A stretch of DNA of 32,094 nucleotides. Origin: a virus. Its lineage: Duplodnaviria > Heunggongvirae > Uroviricota > Caudoviricetes. The notes beneath the pieces were generated by a model. The model ran no database searches, was not told where the DNA came from, and saw nothing but the letters and a program-made list of their open reading frames with translations. Where the stretch lies: IMG/VR virus record IMGVR_UViG_2711768042_000002, positions 1 through 32,094 of that record. One strand, given 5' to 3'. Each line of letters begins with the position of its first letter. Position 1 is the stretch's first letter. Below are positions 4,020 to 31,738 of this stretch, piece after piece. The position numbers were made by a program, and so were the translations under genes.

Positions 4020-5488
4020 TCCACCGTAAATTGAATGCCTGATTTTGAGGTATATGATCCGGATTGACTCTGCTGCTGTTGGGTATTTGTCGGTTGTTGG
4101 CTATTGCTCTGTTGTTGACTATTTGCAGCACTTGAAACCACCAAAGCATCATAAACGCGACCAGACTGACCACGTAATGAGTTATATTGGCCCTGCATTT
4201 TTCGCATTTTTGTTTCAGTAGCAGCCTTGGAATCACCGGGCTGAGGCAGGTACATTTTGGAATACTCCTGCATCTCTGGCAGAGTAATTGCTGCACCTGT
4301 TTCTGGGCGCAAAATTGCATACAAGGCGTCTCTCGCATTTACCATATATTGCTGCTCCGCTGGTGATAGGCTTAAATTTGCAATAGTCCCATCACCAAGA
4401 GAGCGATTTATTAATGCAACTCGCTTAGGGTCAATGCTTTTACTAAGTTGATTCATTGAGTCCATTGAATCTTTTAATCGCAAAGCAAATCCTGCCGCCT
4501 TCTTGGAACCCTCATTAGCCTTATCTATGATGCTTTGCGCTTGTGGCAAACTAATTGGTTTAATGCCATCACCAGATATAGGTTGGTTTAGTTTTCCTGC
4601 TTCCTCGCTGCCATCGGTGTAATACTTAGTTACCGAGCCATCAGGATTGGTTTCAACCTTAAGTAATTTCTTAGCATTGGGATTAATTCCCGCCGCTGCC
4701 GCAAATGCCGCTGCACCATCTGGATCCGCCTTTAACATTTGCGCGTACTGATTGTAATTCTGCATTGCGGCTGTTGGTGCATATGCTGACGTTAACGCAT
4801 TTGCTCGGCTAATATCCTGCCCTCTCGCCTGAAGTGCTTCGCTGGCCTGATTGCTGCGGATTGTCTCTGCCAGTCTGCCTCGGTCAATCTCACGACCAGC
4901 CATCTTGTCCTGAACATTGAAGTAATCAATCGGACCAAGAGCAGCCATTCCAAGGTGATCAACAAACTCACCAAATCCTGAAGGATTCTGCTGATACATC
5001 TGAGCAACGTTATTAGGGTCAACACCGACGCGAGTCAGTTCCTTGGCGTTGTTTTGCAGCCATGATTGCATTGCTTCTGGAGACGAGGCCGCAAGGCGTG
5101 CGCCAGCCGCTAAGGTGCCGATAGAATTGCGCTGGTCTTCGTCTGCCCACTTCATACCAGACTGAATCTTCTCTAATTGACCAGGATATTTGGTCATCAG
5201 ATCTCGCACCTGCTGCCGATCACCTGACTGGATGGCTGCCGCATATTCTTTTTGGAATGCAGCATCCGCTTCCTGTTGCTTTGCGGCTTGATATGTTTGA
5301 GCGACACTACCAAGCCCCTGCAACGCCTGAAGGCCGATGTTATTGCGACCTGAGCGCTCCATTTCGTTGTTCTGGCGAATATATGCCAACGCCTCACTTA
5401 CATCACTTGCCTTTGGCGCATTTGAGTTTTGCCCACCGATACCAGCAAGAAAGCCGCCTGAGTTGATTCCTTGTTGCCAAGTAGCCAT
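4016..5488 (-). CDS. 20: Ejection/injection protein gp20
   Basis: 490 aa, Gln/Ala-rich; order 7-20-16 as in P22; start overlaps gp7 region, stop overlaps gp16 start. Confidence 0.85.
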
Positions 5489-5497
5489 ATTCCCACC

Positions 5498-6172
5498 TTA
5501 AAACAATGATCCAAGACCACCGATAATACCGCCACCAATAGCGCCAACAGCTGTACCTATTCCAGGTACCACAGAGCCAATCATCGCCCCTGATGCCGCA
5601 CCGCTCATGGCACCGCCCAAAGCTGATTGCAATCCTGATGGTCGGTTAGCATTCGCCGCAGATGCTGCCGCCTGCTGTTGATACAATTGGCTGACGTTGT
5701 TAGCGTAGTTCTGCCCGGCGTTTGCCTGACCTGTAAGAGCACCAAGGCCAATGTTTGCCAGATTGTTGTAGTTGTTCATCTGACCTGACAGCCAGTTTTG
5801 ACCGAGTGTAGGTGCGATTGCTGCTAACTGGTTTCCTGTTGCTGTAGAGCCTAATCCACCCGTTGCCTCTGCTGCTGCCAGACTCTGGTAACGCGCCTGA
5901 CCAGCAAGGTCTTTGTACTGCTGGGAGTTGTAATACTGGTTAAGCGCCTGACCTTGCCCCTGAAGAGAGGAAAGATTCTGCAACTCTGATACGTACTGTT
6001 GAGCGAGTGGCGTGAACGGTGCAAGGTTTTGCATGTTCGTTTGCCACATTTCACGCTGCAATTCGATACCCTTTTCAGTTGCGCGTGCCTGGGCTTTTGA
6101 ACCGCCATCACTGCCACCTTTGCAGTAAACAGCTTTGCTGAGGTGCTTATTGGCAATCTGGAAAATTAACAT
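5498..6172 (-). CDS. 7: Ejection/injection protein gp7
   Basis: 224 aa, C-terminal Gly/Ala-rich tail; position between gp14 and gp20. Confidence 0.8.
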   Translation of the reverse strand: MLIFQIANKHLSKAVYCKGGSDGGSKAQARATEKGIELQREMWQTNMQNLAPFTPLAQQYVSELQNLSSLQGQGQALNQYYNSQQYKDLAGQARYQSLAAAEATGGLGSTATGNQLAAIAPTLGQNWLSGQMNNYNNLANIGLGALTGQANAGQNYANNVSQLYQQQAAASAANANRPSGLQSALGGAMSGAASGAMIGSVVPGIGTAVGAIGGGIIGGLGSLF

Positions 6173-6629
6173 TCTTTAGCTCCTCGTATTTTGAGCGCGG
6201 TAACTGATAAATCGTGATGCCTACAGGCTTTCCATTGCTGGTATAAGCATCATCAAGGTGACCAACACGGGTAGCGCCAAGCAAACGGATAATTGACCGT
6301 CCGTATTTCGTGGTGTCAGGAACCATGGTAATGCTGTTAAGGAATGGTGAGTTTTCGAGAAGCCATTTGCAGAATAATCGATGCCCTTGCAGTGCATATT
6401 CACCACGGAATCCGGGGTCGTACACCGCATGGCATTCAACAACGCTATGCCAGAAGTTACGCACTTCATGCACTCCGACCAGCATCAGTCCTTCGTAGAT
6501 GCCGAGGTATACCGCATCAGGCTTGATGTAGTATTTGTCTCCACTGTCTACGATATTTCCCGTGTTTGCCGGGTTGTTGAGGAATTCTGCAAGCTTCACC
6601 GGATTATCGATGAGCTTTATTTCCATCAC
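6147..6629 (-). CDS. 14: Head assembly protein gp14-like
   Basis: 160-aa ORF in the P22 gene-14 position between tail needle and gp7. Confidence 0.7.
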
Positions 6630-11934: not shown

Positions 11935-14133
11935 TTACTGCTGTGGTTGTTGCTGAGTTGATTTTTGCAGGATGCTGCTGATGTCCATGCGCTGCGCATG
12001 GCCCTGTGCCTGACTTTTCAGGACAAGCTCTGCATCAGCACGGGCATTGTCTCCTTGCTGTTGCTGGAACTGTCCGAGCAGTTTCAGAGCCTCGCGGATA
12101 TCAGATTTCTGCTGGCTATCGGCAGATGCGAGGATTTTCACAACATTTGCCGCTGCAACCTGAGCATCAGTCTGTGCCTGGAATGCTTTAACCTGAATGG
12201 CTGCCTGCTCGTTCTGCGCTTTCTGCAATTCAGCCTGACCAGCAAGAAGCTGACCTTGCGCAGCAACCATAGCCGGATCTGGCTGACTGGCCTGTTGTTG
12301 TTTCGCCTGCTCAACCATCTGCTGTTCTTCTGGCGTTCTCGGCTTGATAACTCCAGACAGAAGCAACTGATTGCGGTTGTATTCTTTAAGGTCGTCCATC
12401 CCTTCGCCGTCCATATTGTCGAGGATCATCGACGATACAAGGTCGTGTTTCGGCGTTCCGGGCGGGATAAGTGCCAGCATGGAAAGTAACGACTTAACCG
12501 TTGCGTCACGGCGAGTAGCGAACGACTGACCGACATCGACAGTCACTTCATAGTTACCCTGCGAAAGGTCGTTAAGCGCGATAACCTGCCCTGTCTGACG
12601 GTTAACCACTTCACCAGTCATCAGCGCCACGTCATCGCTGCCATCCTCATTAACGATGCGCATTGGCGTATCGCTGCCATAGACTTCACGAGCCATAGAA
12701 AGCCACACGACGCCAGCACGGCGCATGGATTTAGCCATGTTGTCCATGTAGATATAGGACTGCGTGTCCATCCGGTTAAAGATGCTATCAACGGTATCGG
12801 TAGCGACGTTGCTCGGCATGTTCTCAAGCTGCGACGCACCTGTAATTTGCTGAATAGCCGTTCCGGTGTACTGCAATAGCCCGGCAAGAGCTGGCGGCAT
12901 TTGTGTCGGAGGTGTCCAGCCAGCAACCTGAGCTTCTGAAATGACTGTTCCGTTTTTGTCCTTCTTGCTGGTCATAGGAAGAACTGCAGGTCTTTTCTTA
13001 TTCCTCTCTGCCCAGTGATTCATTAATGGGCCGGGAATGAAATCAACATCCACGATAGGAATGCCATCACCGCCAGCCTGAGTGGCGTTATCTGCAATCA
13101 TGGAAACCATCAGGTTCTCAAGACGCTGTGCATCCATCGCTTTTGCTGCGTGGCCTTCGATTCGCTCCTGATTATCAACAAATGAGCGACGCCCATATAC
13201 CGGGATGAGAGGAATATGTTCGCCCGGAATACGCTTCGGTTCTTCCAGCCATTCAGCGCCAGACAGAAGACCGCAATAAACGCGGCGCTTCTTCACCGTT
13301 CGCTCGCCAATCAGCTCGAATGCACCATCGGTTAGCTCGTCAACAATATCTTTGATCTGTTCTTCATCATAGATTGCCGTTTCTCCACTAACAGAGTTGC
13401 GCCACGCCGTGAGCTTCACCTTCTCTATGCGAACTTCGTAGTAGCGTCCAACATAGATGGCATCGGGCGTTGACCAGTCATACTGAGTACCAGCGTCATC
13501 ACGAGAAAGGCTTGCCGCAATGGAATCAGGGTATTCAGCCTCGAACGCTTTAGGCGTCATGGAGAACATTTCCATAGCCCACATAGCATCAGATCGGTCA
13601 TATTGCTTGCTGTCCTGATCGAAGAAGACGCATGTCGCTGGGTCGTAAACAGGAAGAAGGCTGATGCGTCGCTGATCGTTACTTGGGTCCATTTCATCTT
13701 CGTAATCGGCACACATGCGGAAACAACCGAATCCGCCCGTTACAGCATCATCAAATGCGTTATCACACGCTTCGCCACCGGATGTTTCCTGATAGTCAGC
13801 GCGGAATTTGCCGTTCATTTTTTCGGCTAACGCTTCCGATGCCTTGTCATCCTTCGGCCTGAATTTAACGCTGATGCGATTCTGTCGATACTCGCCAATT
13901 ATGCGATCACATTCACGGGCAATCTTATTCAGTTCAAAGCGCGGGTAATGCTCAAACCTGCCTTCATCAAATGAGTAACCAGCGTTTGTGCTGCCTTCCC
14001 ACTGTGCGCCGGACACCCGGACGAAACGTTGAGCCTCAATAATCTGCTCACGCATATCCTGCGTTGCTGACCAGGCATTATCAAAGTTGCACAGCACCTT
14101 GCGATGCCAGTCAGTCATCTTTTTTTCTGCCAT
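11935..14133 (-). CDS. 1: Portal protein
   Basis: 732 aa; C-terminal Gln-rich helical barrel region (…PEEQQMVEQAKQQQ…DAELVLKSQAQGHAQRMDI) like P22 portal; position after TerL. Confidence 0.9.
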   Translation of the reverse strand: MAEKKMTDWHRKVLCNFDNAWSATQDMREQIIEAQRFVRVSGAQWEGSTNAGYSFDEGRFEHYPRFELNKIARECDRIIGEYRQNRISVKFRPKDDKASEALAEKMNGKFRADYQETSGGEACDNAFDDAVTGGFGCFRMCADYEDEMDPSNDQRRISLLPVYDPATCVFFDQDSKQYDRSDAMWAMEMFSMTPKAFEAEYPDSIAASLSRDDAGTQYDWSTPDAIYVGRYYEVRIEKVKLTAWRNSVSGETAIYDEEQIKDIVDELTDGAFELIGERTVKKRRVYCGLLSGAEWLEEPKRIPGEHIPLIPVYGRRSFVDNQERIEGHAAKAMDAQRLENLMVSMIADNATQAGGDGIPIVDVDFIPGPLMNHWAERNKKRPAVLPMTSKKDKNGTVISEAQVAGWTPPTQMPPALAGLLQYTGTAIQQITGASQLENMPSNVATDTVDSIFNRMDTQSYIYMDNMAKSMRRAGVVWLSMAREVYGSDTPMRIVNEDGSDDVALMTGEVVNRQTGQVIALNDLSQGNYEVTVDVGQSFATRRDATVKSLLSMLALIPPGTPKHDLVSSMILDNMDGEGMDDLKEYNRNQLLLSGVIKPRTPEEQQMVEQAKQQQASQPDPAMVAAQGQLLAGQAELQKAQNEQAAIQVKAFQAQTDAQVAAANVVKILASADSQQKSDIREALKLLGQFQQQQGDNARADAELVLKSQAQGHAQRMDISSILQKSTQQQPQQ

Positions 14134-26309: not shown

Positions 26310-26996
26310 ATGGATAAATACGAACAAAGACGACTAAGGCTGATAGAGATAAGAGACCGATTCTGTAATGGAAAGGCCTCAGAGTTGGCTCGTCGAATAG
26401 AAAGGGAACCATCATACGTTTCCAGAATGCTGTATCCGGAAGGAAAAAGCGGAAAAAAACGCATTGCTGACGATATGATGGAACTAATTGAAAAATCTTT
26501 TAATCTCCCACGCGGATGGATGGACATGCTTGCAGATAGCAAAGTTGGATCTGCAGACCATCTTGAGTTTGCGGGTAACGTTCGTGCGGGTTTTGTTCCG
26601 GTAATTGGTGAAGCCGTTTTGGGAGTTGATGGCTCAGTGGATATGATTGAATTCAGATCCGGTTGGTTAAGCATCTACAGTGGCGATAAAGATGCTTACG
26701 GTCTGAAGGTTAAGGGTGACAGCATGTGGCCAAGGATTCAGTCAGGAGAATATGTTGTTATTGAACCAAATACGCCAGTACATCCAGGTGATGAAGTCTT
26801 TGTAAGGACCAAAGATGGTCATAACATGATAAAGATCATGAACAAAACAAGAGACGGAGACTATCAGTTTAGTAGTATAAACAGCGATCACCGTCCAATC
26901 ACTCTTCCTGTTGAAGAAGTTGATAAAATGCATTTTGTTTCAGCTATTGTGAAACACACTAGGTACGTAGACCAGGACGATCTGCCAAAATTTTGA
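26310..26996 (+). CDS. cI: CI-like prophage repressor with S24 (LexA-like) autopeptidase domain
   Basis: 228 aa; N-terminal HTH region; C-terminal LKVKGDSMWPRI ... K motif typical of S24 peptidase domain. Confidence 0.85.
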   Translation: MDKYEQRRLRLIEIRDRFCNGKASELARRIEREPSYVSRMLYPEGKSGKKRIADDMMELIEKSFNLPRGWMDMLADSKVGSADHLEFAGNVRAGFVPVIGEAVLGVDGSVDMIEFRSGWLSIYSGDKDAYGLKVKGDSMWPRIQSGEYVVIEPNTPVHPGDEVFVRTKDGHNMIKIMNKTRDGDYQFSSINSDHRPITLPVEEVDKMHFVSAIVKHTRYVDQDDLPKF

Positions 26997-27010
26997 GGAT
27001 AAAGCAGCAA

Positions 27011-27307
27011 ATGTTTATACCAGGTATAGTGGTCGCTGTTGTAATCATCTGCTTCATATGGGCAAAGTTATCTCCTGTAAGCTCTAAGCATACAGCTGAA
27101 CTCATGAAGAAGAAGCATCTTATACATGAGGCAGAAACGATAATTAAGAAGTTCAAAGGCATGTCATATGACGACATGTCATCAGATCAGATTGCTATGT
27201 ATAAATGCGCCATTGAGCGTCTTGACTACTTAAACGGACTCAAACCCAAACACACCCCGGTAGAATCAAAATTGCCGCAATGGCCAAGCAATCCAAATAG
27301 CTTCTGA
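27011..27307 (+). CDS. Hypothetical membrane-anchored protein co-oriented immediately downstream of cI (rex position)
   Basis: ATG ~12 nt after GAGG; MFIPGIVVAVVIICFIWAKLS... single N-terminal TM helix then charged soluble domain; followed by strong terminator; AT-rich. Confidence 0.55.
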   Translation: MFIPGIVVAVVIICFIWAKLSPVSSKHTAELMKKKHLIHEAETIIKKFKGMSYDDMSSDQIAMYKCAIERLDYLNGLKPKHTPVESKLPQWPSNPNSF

Positions 27308-27318
27308 CATCTCCTTTC

Positions 27319-27342
27319 AGCCCGCAAAGCGGGCTTTTTTAT
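27319..27342 (+). terminator. Rho-independent terminator ending the cI operon
   Basis: AGCCCGC-AAA-GCGGGCT followed by TTTTTT. Confidence 0.75.
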
Positions 27343-27354
27343 ATCAATCCAAAA

Positions 27355-27445
27355 AATTAATTACCTGAAAATTCAAACAGGTAAACTCTCACACCAATTT
27401 TATTTACCTGCAGGTATAGACAACAGTTTTACCTGTAGGTATATT
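27355..27445. promoter_or_regulatory. OL operator / pL promoter region
   Basis: TTTACCTGCAGGTATA (~27403-27418), TTTTACCTGTAGGTATA (~27427-27443) and split TTACCTG...CAGGTAA; candidate -35 TAGACA / -10 TATATT overlapping operators. Confidence 0.55.
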
Positions 27446-27485
27446 TTAAGCCATCAGCAGGACGCACTAACCACCATGAAGGTGA

Positions 27486-27516
27486 TGCTCTTAAAAATTA
27501 AGCCCTGAAGAAGGGC
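27486..27516 (+). promoter_or_regulatory. nutL (boxA-like GCTCTTAA, boxB GCCCTGAAGAAGGGC)
   Basis: Read directly upstream of N; boxB identical to lambda nutL boxB as recalled. Confidence 0.75.
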
Positions 27517-27673
27517 AGCATTCAAAGCAGAAGGCTTTGGTGTGTGTGATACGAAACGAAGCATTGGCCGGAAGTGCGAATCCGGATTAGCTGCCAATGT
27601 GCCATTGCGGGGTGTTTTCGTTCAGGACTACGACTCCCACACACAACCAAAGCTAACTGACAGGAGAATCCAG

Positions 27674-28000
27674 ATGGATGCACAAACACGCCGCCGCGAA
27701 CGTCGCGCAGAGAAACAGGCTCAATGGAAAGCAGCAAATCCCCTGTTGGTTGGGGTAAGCGCAAAACCAGTTAACCGCCCTATTCTCTCGCTGAATCGCA
27801 AACCGAAATCACGAGTAGAAAGCGCACTGAATCCGATAGACCTTACGGTGCTGGCTGAATACCACGAACAGATTGAAAGCAACCTGCAACGTATTGAGCG
27901 CAAGAATCAGCGCACATGGTACAGCAAGCCACGCAGTGAAATGGGTGTGACTTGTGTTGGTCGCCAGAAAATGAAATTAGGCAGCAAACCACTTATTTGA
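27674..28000 (+). CDS. N: Antitermination protein N (lambda-type)
   Basis: MDAQTRRRERRAEKQAQWKAANPLLVGVSAKPVNRPILSLNRKPKSRVESALNPIDLTVLAEYH... matches lambda N arginine-rich motif and body; start at internal ATG of track ORF 27542..28000. Confidence 0.9.
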   Translation: MDAQTRRRERRAEKQAQWKAANPLLVGVSAKPVNRPILSLNRKPKSRVESALNPIDLTVLAEYHEQIESNLQRIERKNQRTWYSKPRSEMGVTCVGRQKMKLGSKPLI

Positions 28001-28011
28001 GAGGAATTAAT

Positions 28012-28635
28012 ATGTCATCAATCCGCTTAACTACGAGAATGAAAGAGAAAATCGCTCGTAACGCTTTAATTAAATCTGGGGTTTTCACTGAGCTTGAAGA
28101 AGTAACAAAGTTAAAGAACCAGCTTGCACTTGACGCCAGAGTTGTTGCGTTTGGCGGTAAAAAGAAAACTGAGGAAGTGGATCAGTTATCATCCAAGTTA
28201 ATGGCTATAAGCGAAGAACTTGAAAAGCTGGGATGTTCATTTTACTCATGCGATGCCCGTTCAACTTCAATTTATCTGACTGTATCTGGCAGAAGGGTTG
28301 GCTGGTATTCATATGGGAAAGACGGCAACGGCGAAGATATATTGCTCCCTACTCCGACCAAAGATAAATGCATGTTTAGCGCAGAACACGAAATAACAAA
28401 AAGGTTTGATGAAATCTGCGCATTGCAACAAAAACTTGAAGCCAAGAAAAAGGATATCGAATCAAATGTATGGGCTGCTTTGAACTCAGTCACAACAGTT
28501 AAGCGACTTATTGAAGTTTGGCCTGAAAGCAAAGAGTTGCTACCAAAAGAAGCAGATAAAGCAAGTACAGCACTTCCTGCTTTACGGGTAGAAGATTTGA
28601 ATAAGATGATTGGACTTCCTTCCGAGGTCGCATAA
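28012..28635 (+). CDS. Hypothetical 207-aa protein between N and cIII
   Basis: ATG 28012 with GAGG RBS (track ORF 27952..28635 in frame); soluble, charged, no motif recognised; AT-rich. Confidence 0.6.
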   Translation: MSSIRLTTRMKEKIARNALIKSGVFTELEEVTKLKNQLALDARVVAFGGKKKTEEVDQLSSKLMAISEELEKLGCSFYSCDARSTSIYLTVSGRRVGWYSYGKDGNGEDILLPTPTKDKCMFSAEHEITKRFDEICALQQKLEAKKKDIESNVWAALNSVTTVKRLIEVWPESKELLPKEADKASTALPALRVEDLNKMIGLPSEVA

Positions 28636-28679
28636 TCGTCCTTTATTTTTGGCATAAACAACAGAATAAACACTGCACT

Positions 28680-28707
28680 GTGTATTCATTCCAACGAGTG
28701 AATACAC
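28680..28707 (+). other. 9-bp perfect stem-loop (GTGTATTCA-N9-TGAATACAC) without U-tract
   Basis: Read directly in 225-bp non-coding gap. Confidence 0.4.
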
Positions 28708-28769
28708 GGAGCAATGTCGCTCGTAACCAAACAGGAGCCGACTTGTTCTGATTATTGGAAATCTTCTTT

Positions 28770-28794
28770 GCCCTCCAGTGTGAGGGCCTTTTTA
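28770..28794 (+). terminator. Rho-independent terminator (tL1-like) between N operon and cIII
   Basis: GCCCTC-CAGTGT-GAGGGC followed by CTTTTT. Confidence 0.6.
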
Positions 28795-28859
28795 TATGCA
28801 TACCAATAACGCTTCACTCGAGGCGTTTTCGTTATGCAATCAAACAGAAGGAGCATCCT

Positions 28860-29030
28860 ATGCAACAGTTCGCTATTGCAGGGGCGGCATCGGTTCGCCC
28901 TTTCAACCCGATTTTATCGGTACAGCATTCACGAAAAAATATTTTAACCGGAGCAGACTTTAAACAACCAAGAATGAAAAGCTTGCTCGAAAAGCTTTGG
29001 GATATTTTGAAACAACAAGGCCGCCCATGA
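28860..29030 (+). CDS. cIII: CIII-like protein (FtsH inhibitor)
   Basis: 56 aa, MQQFAIAGAASVRPF...SLLEKLWDILKQQGRP; resembles lambda CIII (MQYAIAGW...LIDILNQPGVP); AAGGAG RBS; inside track ORF 28755..29030. Confidence 0.65.
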   Translation: MQQFAIAGAASVRPFNPILSVQHSRKNILTGADFKQPRMKSLLEKLWDILKQQGRP

Positions 29031-29134
29031 GTTTTACAGATAACTGGTCAGACGAAGAATTCATTCGTCAGATGAACAAAATGCTCAATCAGCACAAAGA
29101 ACAGGAGAAAGATGATGATTCTGACTCTGAATGA
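29027..29134 (+). CDS. Possible 35-aa acidic peptide overlapping cIII stop (ATGA)
   Basis: MSFTDNWSDEEFIRQMNKMLNQHKEQEKDDDSDSE; no clear RBS; not in ORF track. Confidence 0.25.
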   Translation: MSFTDNWSDEEFIRQMNKMLNQHKEQEKDDDSDSE

Positions 29135-29423
29135 TAAGCGTGAAATATCGCAAATAATCGCAAGTTTTACTGATGAAGATTACGAGCGAATCAACAGTGA
29201 AGTTGATCGCCTCTGCAAACGTTGCGACCCAATAAGCGAAATGCTTCGCTTATATAAACCAGATGAACACACTAAGGACGCTATCGACTGGCTGGAAGAT
29301 GATGACTGTAACTATCAGGAAAAAGCCGCTGAATGGTTCTGGGATGCAATAACCGAAAGAGTTAAGGCTGAATATGCCTTCGCAATATTCAAACGCAGAC
29401 ACATTTTTGGAGAAGCTGCATGA
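29112..29423 (+). CDS. Hypothetical 103-aa acidic protein upstream of recT
   Basis: Track ORF; AGGAG RBS; stop overlaps recT start. Confidence 0.6.
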   Translation: MMILTLNDKREISQIIASFTDEDYERINSEVDRLCKRCDPISEMLRLYKPDEHTKDAIDWLEDDDCNYQEKAAEWFWDAITERVKAEYAFAIFKRRHIFGEAA

Positions 29424-31139: not shown

Positions 31140-31304
31140 ATGAGAGGTCTTGCATACAATCCCGGCATTCTTCCGGCAGAAATGATTATTCGCCAACGCG
31201 TAAAGCCAATGCCATCGAGAGAGGAATTGCTTAAGAGAAATTCTTTTCCATCAGTGAATCAAAACAAATATCTGAATGCGATGTGGCGGAGTGGGAAAAA
31301 ATGA
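31140..31304 (+). CDS. Possible 54-aa protein (not in ORF track)
   Basis: ATG after GAGGAATTAATC; [54 protein letters not shown]; stop overlaps next start. Confidence 0.3.
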
Positions 31305-31738
31305 AACAAATGTCACTAATTGAGATGGATGGTTTTCTGAAAGGTAAATGCATCCCCCGAGATTTAAAGGTTAACGAAACAAACGCTGAATATCTGGTGC
31401 GTAAGTTCGGTGAACTTGAATCAAAACTGGAAACGGCGTTGCTGGAGTGTCGTTCTGCTGGAATCACGATTGATAACCTTGAGGCTAAATGCGCGAAGAT
31501 GGCTGCTGAAAATACATCGCTTAAGCAACCTGAGAAGGAATTTAATGACTTTTGTCGTGAGGAGTTTAGCGAATGGGAAGATGATGTTACTGAAACCCCA
31601 GCCACCGACGCTTTCCTGGCTGAAGTCCGGGCGCAGGGAGTTGAGATGATGCGCGAACATCCATCAATCAAACTTTGCTCCTTGACGCACATATGTGACG
31701 AGTTAGCCGCCCAGCTTCGCAAAGGAGGCAACCAGTGA
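31301..31738 (+). CDS. Hypothetical 145-aa protein
   Basis: ATG ([13 protein letters not shown]...) in frame with track ORF 31283..31738 (GTG alternative). Confidence 0.55.

Follow-up and report, generated by a model that had tools for sequence, protein, structure and literature searches.

An Nmad5-family gene directly behind N in the early left operon of a P22-like prophage

Results

The gene between N and cIII belongs to the Nmad5 family

The window analysed here is the whole stretch of 32,094 nucleotides (nt) of IMG/VR record IMGVR_UViG_2711768042_000002, a P22-like E. coli prophage of the Kapi1 / CUS-3 / 720R6 type. Its early left operon holds N, cIII, a 103-amino-acid (aa) protein without Pfam match, RecT and Sipho_Gp157, and between N and cIII lies the gene studied here, which encodes a protein of 207 aa (Table 1). 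A sequence-only reading of the window had described this protein as unrecognised, with no motif that could be named. This description does not stand. The protein matches Pfam family PF18757 (Nmad5, "Nucleotide modification associated domain 5") with E=4e-71 and 239.7 bits, for a gathering cut-off of 27, and the match runs from end to end, residues 4-203 aligning on positions 1-206 of the 206 of the profile. It also matches PHROG 1965, of category "unknown function" (E=1.1e-81, residues 3-206 on positions 2-207 of 208), and a 100% identical copy, present in E. coli AR_0017 between small hypothetical genes and cIII/kil, bears the RefSeq name "Nmad5 family putative nucleotide modification protein". 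The NCBIfam scan gave no match, and no defence-system family of PADLOC-DB was matched at E≤10. Judged by these sequence matches, membership in the Nmad5 family is near certain; the gene is already catalogued, and the window contributes no new family.

Both parts of the family signature were found in the protein. The N-terminal part, RL(T/N)..I+..I..NA..K(S/A)G, corresponds here to R5-L6, I14, N17-A18, K21 and G23, and the C-terminal part, T.K(K/R)L...WPE..EL.P ... LPA....LN..IGLP, to T162, K164-R165-L166, W170-P171-E172, L176, P178, L188-P189, L196-N197 and I200-G201-L202-P203. The family architecture, a stand-alone and mainly alpha-helical protein of ~200 aa, was likewise found (207 aa, with a mostly helical model). 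A profile search among 1.84 billion representatives returned 2297 clusters at E≤0.001; nearly all of the 150 best of these 2297 matches were ~190-230 aa long and aligned over their full length, which indicates a large family of stand-alone proteins.

The family, reportedly named by Iyer et al. in 2013 (in NAR), owes its name to its neighbourhood in the base-hypermodifying phages YuA, MW2 and M6/SN1. No biochemical activity in DNA or nucleotide modification was reported for Nmad5 in the literature that we found. The "nucleotide modification" label was guessed from context; for the lambdoid member, it should not be taken as a function. The sequence-only reading had considered a host-takeover or anti-defence role plausible, to be given up if the protein fell into a known family of unrelated function. 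This is only half the case, because the assignment to a family is confident but the label of that family is not a demonstrated function.

Expression is predicted to be immediate-early

The N stop codon (27998-28000) and the ATG of the Nmad5 gene are separated by 11 nt. Upstream, the candidate pL promoter coincides with the pL annotated in the HK542 immunity region (97% identical). From nutL to the end of the Nmad5 gene, no + strand terminator-like site was found by the terminator scan, which flagged the nutL boxB as a − strand hairpin. By this layout, transcription from pL reaches the Nmad5 gene right after N, and no terminator is predicted between the two. Since the gap is 11 nt and the gene lies ahead of the first terminator, N-independent, immediate-early expression is predicted for the arrangement of the window.

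That the gene would be the first after N on the pL transcript, AT-rich, and followed by a stem-loop and a terminator before cIII, its product being soluble and highly charged, had been proposed from the sequence, and all of this was borne out. The GC content of the gene is 40.7%, vs 47.4% for the window. Charged residues make up 31% of the protein (33 K+R, 31 D+E), its pI is 8.2, and no hydrophobic segment is present (maximal 19-residue hydropathy 0.61). Past its stop codon, a long hairpin precedes two terminator-like hairpins. Among 76 related loci, an exact or near-exact copy of the long hairpin was found in 56, where it accompanies the Nmad5 gene and not cIII; it may serve for processing, or stabilise the 3′ end. 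The first of the two terminator-like hairpins is also the first such site on the pL transcript, and its stem is kept in ~44 of these 76 loci. The 241-nt RNA between the Nmad5 gene and cIII is predicted to fold much more stably than its shuffles (z = −5.5). An Rfam scan of 27200-29300 returned nothing above the gathering score.

Table 1. Coordinates of the Nmad5 gene and of the features around it in the window
Feature	Position	Strand	Evidence and remarks
Candidate pL promoter (TAGACA, 17-nt spacer, TATATT)	27417..27445	+	Promoter scan, 10/12 matches
nutL boxB hairpin GCCCTGAAGAAGGGC	27502..27516	+	Read from sequence; corresponds to boxB annotated in HK542
Antiterminator N gene	27674..28000	+	Pfam N36, E=1.5e-26; 90% identical to lambda N; annotated N in HK542
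Shine-Dalgarno GAGG	28001..28004	+	7 nt before ATG, right behind N stop; read from sequence
Nmad5-family gene, 207 aa	28012..28635	+	Open reading frame; ATG at 28012, stop ends at 28635
Long near-perfect hairpin without T-run	28677..28709	+	RNA fold; 42 nt past Nmad5 stop
Intrinsic-terminator-like GC hairpin with T-run	28770..28795	+	Terminator scan; tL1-like position
Second terminator-like hairpin before cIII	28808..28835	+	Terminator scan and RNA fold
cIII gene, next downstream	28860..29030	+	Open reading frame; annotated cIII in HK542 and AR_0017

Other open reading frames (ORFs) of this region were noted in passing. Two early-left ORFs have no Pfam match, one of 103 aa (29112-29423, +), which overlaps the start codon of RecT, and one of 151 aa (31283-31738, +). 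A 104-aa ORF (26993-27307, +) follows the cI-like repressor gene, whose stop codon it overlaps; it has an N-terminal hydrophobic segment, IPGIVVAVVIICFIW, no Pfam match, and a strong intrinsic terminator downstream (27319-27335). As its position is that of rexAB in lambda, it is probably expressed in the lysogen. The same site is occupied by two hypothetical genes in HK542, and by DUF6932 and a hypothetical gene in AR_0017.

The frame is conserved in close relatives

The close relatives compared were 80 IMG/VR loci with 93-100% identity. The intact 207-aa frame is present in 78 of them, as the sequence-only reading would require, and the median pairwise dN/dS (ratio of nonsynonymous to synonymous substitution rates) among the 80 is 0.30. 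Variable sites number 45, 39 and 85 at codon positions 1, 2 and 3. The two exceptions are locus L091, where the frame is three codons short (204 aa), and locus L019, with a stop at codon 3. In the latter (6001-6621), the frame reads MS*IRL..., the asterisk being the stop, and is otherwise 98.6% identical, so that either a recent pseudogene or a sequencing error may be at hand.

An ORF of 133 aa runs antisense to the gene (28272-28673, −). It is annotated as hypothetical protein HK542c101 in GenBank EF120458, one of the HK542 records, and is open in 74 of the 80 relatives, being broken at its second codon in the other 6. Since its third codon positions coincide with those of the + frame, and since 6 loci interrupt it, it was rejected as a real gene and is taken for a shadow ORF. 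The idea that the + frame is a chance ORF, or that the antisense one is the real gene, draws on the EF120458 annotation and on the 74 open copies, but is refuted by the full-length Pfam match of the + frame, its dN/dS, and substitutions that favour its third codon position.

The Nmad5 gene was also found in 211 of 5426 complete E. coli genomes, in phages HK542, HK244, mEp235 and Kapi1, in the PhiR12 phages, and in many Stx phages. In many records of Stx2a-converting phages (e.g. LC616039, LC616058), the protein aligns over residues 34-207 only and is matched at one further site of the record, and the DNA alignment falls into 3-4 pieces spread over 2.7-4 kb; the Nmad5 gene appears to be interrupted or 5′-truncated in these phages.

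The gene is a mosaic unit separate from ral

We mapped the lambda proteins on the 80 loci. The order obtained is N-(ral)-Nmad5-(ea10)-cIII-kil-gam. In 9 loci (L035, L040, L041, L042, L043, L056, L065, L077 and L091), the gene next upstream of Nmad5, ~40 nt before its ATG, encodes a Ral homologue 80-98% identical to lambda Ral, and in 10 an Ea10 homologue is encoded downstream. No SieB homologue was found among the 80 loci. The Nmad5 protein itself resembles none of the lambda proteins Ral, SieB, Ea10, Orf28, Gam, Kil and cIII; with the 66-aa lambda Ral, the best BLASTP value was E=72, and the Nmad5 profile did not match Ral. The gene had been placed earlier in the ral/sieB slot of lambda. It does occupy the same N-cIII interval, but the view that it replaces ral or sieB was rejected, as it co-occurs with ral: Ral and Ea10 homologues stand in tandem with Nmad5, which therefore has a slot of its own and forms a separate module.

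The Nmad5 gene behaves as a mosaic unit. At least 9 different genes were found upstream of it, including three kinds of N-like arginine-rich proteins, and the cIII allele of the window is present in only 21 of the 80 relatives. The arrangement of the window, with its 11-nt gap, is found in 35 of them.

The predicted protein is helical and conserved at both ends

An AlphaFold model, built from an alignment of 27 sequences, has a mean pLDDT (predicted local distance difference test) of 85 and a pTM (predicted template modelling score) of 0.69. It is a bundle of coiled-coil helices into which a small beta element is inserted: helices 8-22, 24-47 and 50-72, a beta hairpin at 86-100, a helix of 32 residues at 127-158, and a small C-terminal helical region. 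A Foldseek search against the PDB gave nothing below E=0.25, a PDB sequence-profile search gave only coiled-coil noise (E>0.29), and the significant matches in BFVD were other Nmad5 or uncharacterised phage proteins.

Conservation was read from an alignment of 46 family sequences, with a mean column identity of 35%. It is found at both ends of the protein, the middle (coiled coil and beta insert) being variable. Conserved positions are R5, L6, basic 11, I14, N17, A18, G23, basic 35, A39, R43, G48 and G49 in the N-terminal part, and T162, K164, L166, W170, P171, E172, E175, L176, P178, L188, P189, L196, N197, I200, G201, L202 and P203 in the C-terminal part. The polar residues conserved across the family are mainly R5, basic 11, N17, basic 35, R43, T162, K164, E172, E175 and N197; no conserved His/Asp/Cys/Ser set suggestive of catalysis was present in the 46 sequences. 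Residues 1-52 include 12 K/R vs 5 D/E, counted from the sequence. As the PDB searches brought up nothing enzyme-like and conserved catalytic residues are absent, we infer that the protein is non-enzymatic.

Distant homologues lie in early operons and replication modules

We compared the surroundings of distant homologues in a set of 34 non-redundant IMG/VR loci, where genes within four of Nmad5 were counted as neighbours, and in about a dozen annotated phages. Several place Nmad5 at the head of an early operon. This is so in prophages of Serratia and Providencia without N, whose homologue (44-47% identity) leads the + strand genes that follow the S24 repressor, and in Salmonella phage SenTO17, where Nmad5 opens a divergent early operon. 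The S24 repressor is a neighbour in 6 of the 34 loci, and by our reading of the gene maps a strand switch precedes Nmad5 in ~10.

Replication genes form the second kind of surroundings. DUF2800 (PD-(D/E)XK) and Enc34 single-stranded DNA-binding protein (SSB) genes are neighbours in 12 of the 34 loci, and a DNA polymerase A gene in 9; the commonest order is a 300-aa protein, DUF2800, Enc34 SSB, Nmad5, DNA polymerase A. In N4-like phages, Nmad5 is located between thymidylate synthase and a PD-(D/E)XK nuclease with primase; in Vibrio phage Athena1, it adjoins and precedes replication protein O, and in eiAU-183 and ECO1230-10 it comes after primase or helicase genes. The base-modification neighbourhood that gave the family its name was seen in YuA and MW2 alone, and in part in the N4-like phages. 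It is absent from the window, where the neighbours are N, cIII, RecT, Sipho_Gp157 and proteins without Pfam match. The more general association of Nmad5 is with early operons and with replication/recombination modules.

Some details of these loci deserve mention in their own right. The temperate-phage replication module recurs in L115, L148, L135, L107, L114, L118, L129, L160 and others, the ~300-aa protein being an unannotated coiled coil, and one of the polymerases has DUF4326 fused to it. L098, L151, L158 and L161 have the same replication genes with Nmad5 first. In L098, a Providencia alcalifaciens prophage, the operon headed by Nmad5 runs into a CAP12-PCTIR TIR-domain gene (12130-12621), and the 1.1-kb gap between repressor and Nmad5 contains an antisense, Cys-rich ORF of 85 aa (5640-5897, −).

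A Dhillonvirus homologue is linked to the Tmn defence

In the literature that we found, experiments on function were confined to the homologue of Dhillonvirus, and their bearing on defence is indirect. Mutants escaping the Tmn defence carry nmad5 K296E in phage SMS22 or K216E in SMA8; reverting the nmad5 mutation restores sensitivity to Tmn, and engineering the mutation confers escape (PMC11846954). Deletion of nmad5 leaves the phage viable and does not lead to Tmn escape, wild-type Nmad5 of SMS22 gives no protection from Tmn, which is provided by a separate anti-Tmn gene, and nmad5 could not be cloned, being apparently toxic (PMC11846954). A second paper on Tmn names T2 RIIB as the trigger, not Nmad5. 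The DefensePredictor paper refers to an NMAD domain without specifying its number.

K296 of SM_S22 CDS6 aligns with R165 of the window protein, as the second basic residue of the motif (TDKKLIKAWPE vs TVKRLIEVWPE here). A basic residue is thus present here at R165, and the neighbouring position, K164, is basic in 80% of the family. These data show that TxK[KR]L..WPE, the most conserved Nmad5 motif, is functionally important, and that the Nmad5 protein interacts, directly or indirectly, with a host process monitored by a defence system.

In Escherichia phage SM_S22 (locus L006), nmad5 is annotated as CDS6 (5296-6300, 334 aa) and overlaps the head scaffolding gene of the opposite strand by ~200 nt. 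The N-terminus typical of the family (MRLTKDIK...) begins at M81, and translation probably starts 80 codons downstream of the annotated start; this explains the 80-residue offset between K296 of SMS22 and K216 of SMA8.

Two known defence triggers of Dhillonvirus were considered as possible Nmad5 proteins and rejected: Ksap1 has 74 aa and is unrelated, and RAZR is triggered in SECphi18 by the portal protein. The literature on mEp235 held nothing on its Nmad5 gene.

Discussion

A proposed binding protein of the early operon

The explanation that we favour, albeit with less than even confidence, is that Nmad5 is a dispensable, non-enzymatic early protein, whose conserved ends bind either DNA or some conserved protein that serves DNA replication, recombination or nucleotide metabolism. 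In the window, N and Nmad5 would be made side by side from the first moments of infection or induction, ahead of any N-dependent read-through. The helical coiled-coil protein would work by binding and not by catalysis, and its binding surface would comprise a strongly basic N-terminal helical hairpin and the C-terminal motif TxK[KR]L..WPE..EL.P / LPA....LN..IGLP. In favour of a link with DNA metabolism, we count the replication genes around Nmad5 in diverse loci and, here, the position of the gene upstream of RecT and Gp157. In a P22-like prophage, the protein may then act as a dispensable accessory factor of the early phase, preparing or shielding the replicating phage genome. Because it would touch a host process, it would also help to decide the outcome where abortive-infection systems such as Tmn are present.

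Several observations weigh against this explanation. Neither a binding partner nor DNA binding is reported for any member of the family, and the conserved C-terminal motif, which would be part of the binding surface, is modelled with low confidence, pLDDT being 46-59 over residues 181-207 (with 183-191 and 205-207 among the stretches of low confidence). The gene lies inside head/tail modules in Dhillonvirus and in Vibrio phage 1.093.O; the link with replication is therefore not universal, and these positions could reflect the mobility of accessory genes. Where ral precedes it, the Nmad5 gene may be located beyond a terminator, and would then not be immediate-early. Finally, in YuA/M6-like phages and MW2 it is found inside the thymidine-hypermodification cassette, which fits a role in modification.

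Other explanations

A possible, though doubtful, alternative is an anti-defence protein, made at once and neutralising a restriction or abortive-infection system, Tmn for instance, by binding. Its immediate-early position beside N, and beside Ral in 9 of the 80 relatives, suits such a role, as do its occurrence as an AT-rich mosaic unit behind at least 9 different upstream genes, its varied, moron-like positions in unrelated phages and its moderate dN/dS of 0.30. The protein, however, matches nothing in PADLOC, resembles neither Ral nor SieB nor Gam, and with a pI of 8.2 is not acidic, and therefore no DNA mimic of the Ocr/ArdA kind. The Dhillonvirus data point both ways: nmad5 is dispensable there and a point mutation in the conserved motif alters the outcome with Tmn, but the wild-type protein of SMS22 is unprotective and deletion is without effect. 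In addition, the motifs are kept across hosts ranging from Vibrio to Pseudomonas and Bordetella, which suits a conserved housekeeping target better than fast-evolving immune proteins, and in 12 of the 34 diverse loci the gene is embedded in core replication modules.

A role in base modification, as the family name would have it, is unlikely, support for it being confined to YuA/M6-like phages and, loosely, to N4-like ones. Nmad5 could be a component of the pathway, for example a non-catalytic subunit bringing enzymes, here those of the host, to new DNA in the manner of Ral. Lambda Ral acts through the host EcoKI methylase, and in lambdoid relatives the Nmad5 gene adjoins ral; it adjoins thymidylate synthase in the N4-like group. 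The predicted 5-hydroxymethyldeoxyuridine (5-hmdU) kinase / aGPT-Pplase genes on one side and the dUMP hydroxymethylase gene on the other enclose it in YuA and MW2, and PMC9476957 counts it in the thymidine-modification cassette of M6/SN1. Against this, neither the operon of the window nor the recurrent neighbours in the 34 diverse loci include a gene for modification or nucleotide metabolism; the fold is not enzyme-like, and conserved catalytic residues are lacking. P22-like and lambdoid phages are not known to hypermodify their DNA.

Less probable still is an early transcription regulator, antiterminator-like or binding RNA polymerase, that would take the place of N where N is lacking. This is what its first position after the repressor/pL region in the N-less Serratia and Providencia prophages, and at the start of the SenTO17 early operon, might suggest, but Nmad5 coexists with N in most close relatives, lies in mid-operon between SSB and DNA polymerase genes in many phages and inside structural modules in others, is dispensable in Dhillonvirus, and has neither an arginine-rich motif nor a helix-turn-helix domain in the Pfam scan.

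Significance

A broader reading would make the Nmad5 proteins, with more than 2000 clusters at 50% identity a very large family, immediate-early phage factors that engage a conserved hub of host surveillance or DNA metabolism, the lambdoid member being a counter-defence protein, or one sensed by defence, in the first minute of infection. We put this forward as a speculation and consider it rather improbable. If it were true, "nucleotide modification" would be a misnomer, and Nmad5 would stand for a new class of host-interaction proteins common to temperate and lytic phages.

The question matters, as the family is very widespread: besides its 2297 representative clusters and its presence in ~4% of complete E. 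coli genomes, it occurs in phages of Vibrio, Pseudomonas, Bordetella, Klebsiella and Edwardsiella, and it bears a name taken from context only, a context absent in most of the loci examined here. A phage specialist will find no surprise in an Nmad5 gene in the early left operon. In N-type lambdoid phages, nevertheless, Nmad5 is co-transcribed with N before the first terminator, and in lambda N is the only gene so placed. HK542, mEp235 and Kapi1, as lambdoid phages, are genetically easy systems in which to address the function of Nmad5 and the question why one charge reversal in its conserved motif is enough to overcome Tmn.

Comparison with known systems

Ral, SieB and Ea10 of lambda are encoded in the same interval of the pL operon as Nmad5, between N and cIII. 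SieB is annotated on the opposite strand in lambda and is a membrane protein, whereas the Nmad5 protein has no hydrophobic segment. The DNA mimics Ocr and ArdA are strongly acidic; the Nmad5 protein, with its pI of 8.2, differs from them in this respect and has no Pfam or PADLOC match to such proteins.

The Nmad5 proteins of the YuA and MW2 cassettes belong to the same family, the tblastn match covering the C-terminal 42% in YuA and the full length in MW2. Their genes are flanked by radical-SAM, PLP (pyridoxal phosphate)-enzyme, kinase, aGPT-Pplase and hydroxymethylase genes and lie upstream of DNA polymerase A, whereas N and cIII flank the gene of the window.

The Dhillonvirus protein (SM_S22 CDS6 / SMA8 CDS7) is homologous to that of the window over the N-terminal helix and the C-terminal half, with ~31% identity over residues 104-203. 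It has a larger central insert, and measures ~254 aa from M81 compared to 207 aa here. Its gene is placed antisense inside the head module, whereas that of the window belongs to the early operon.

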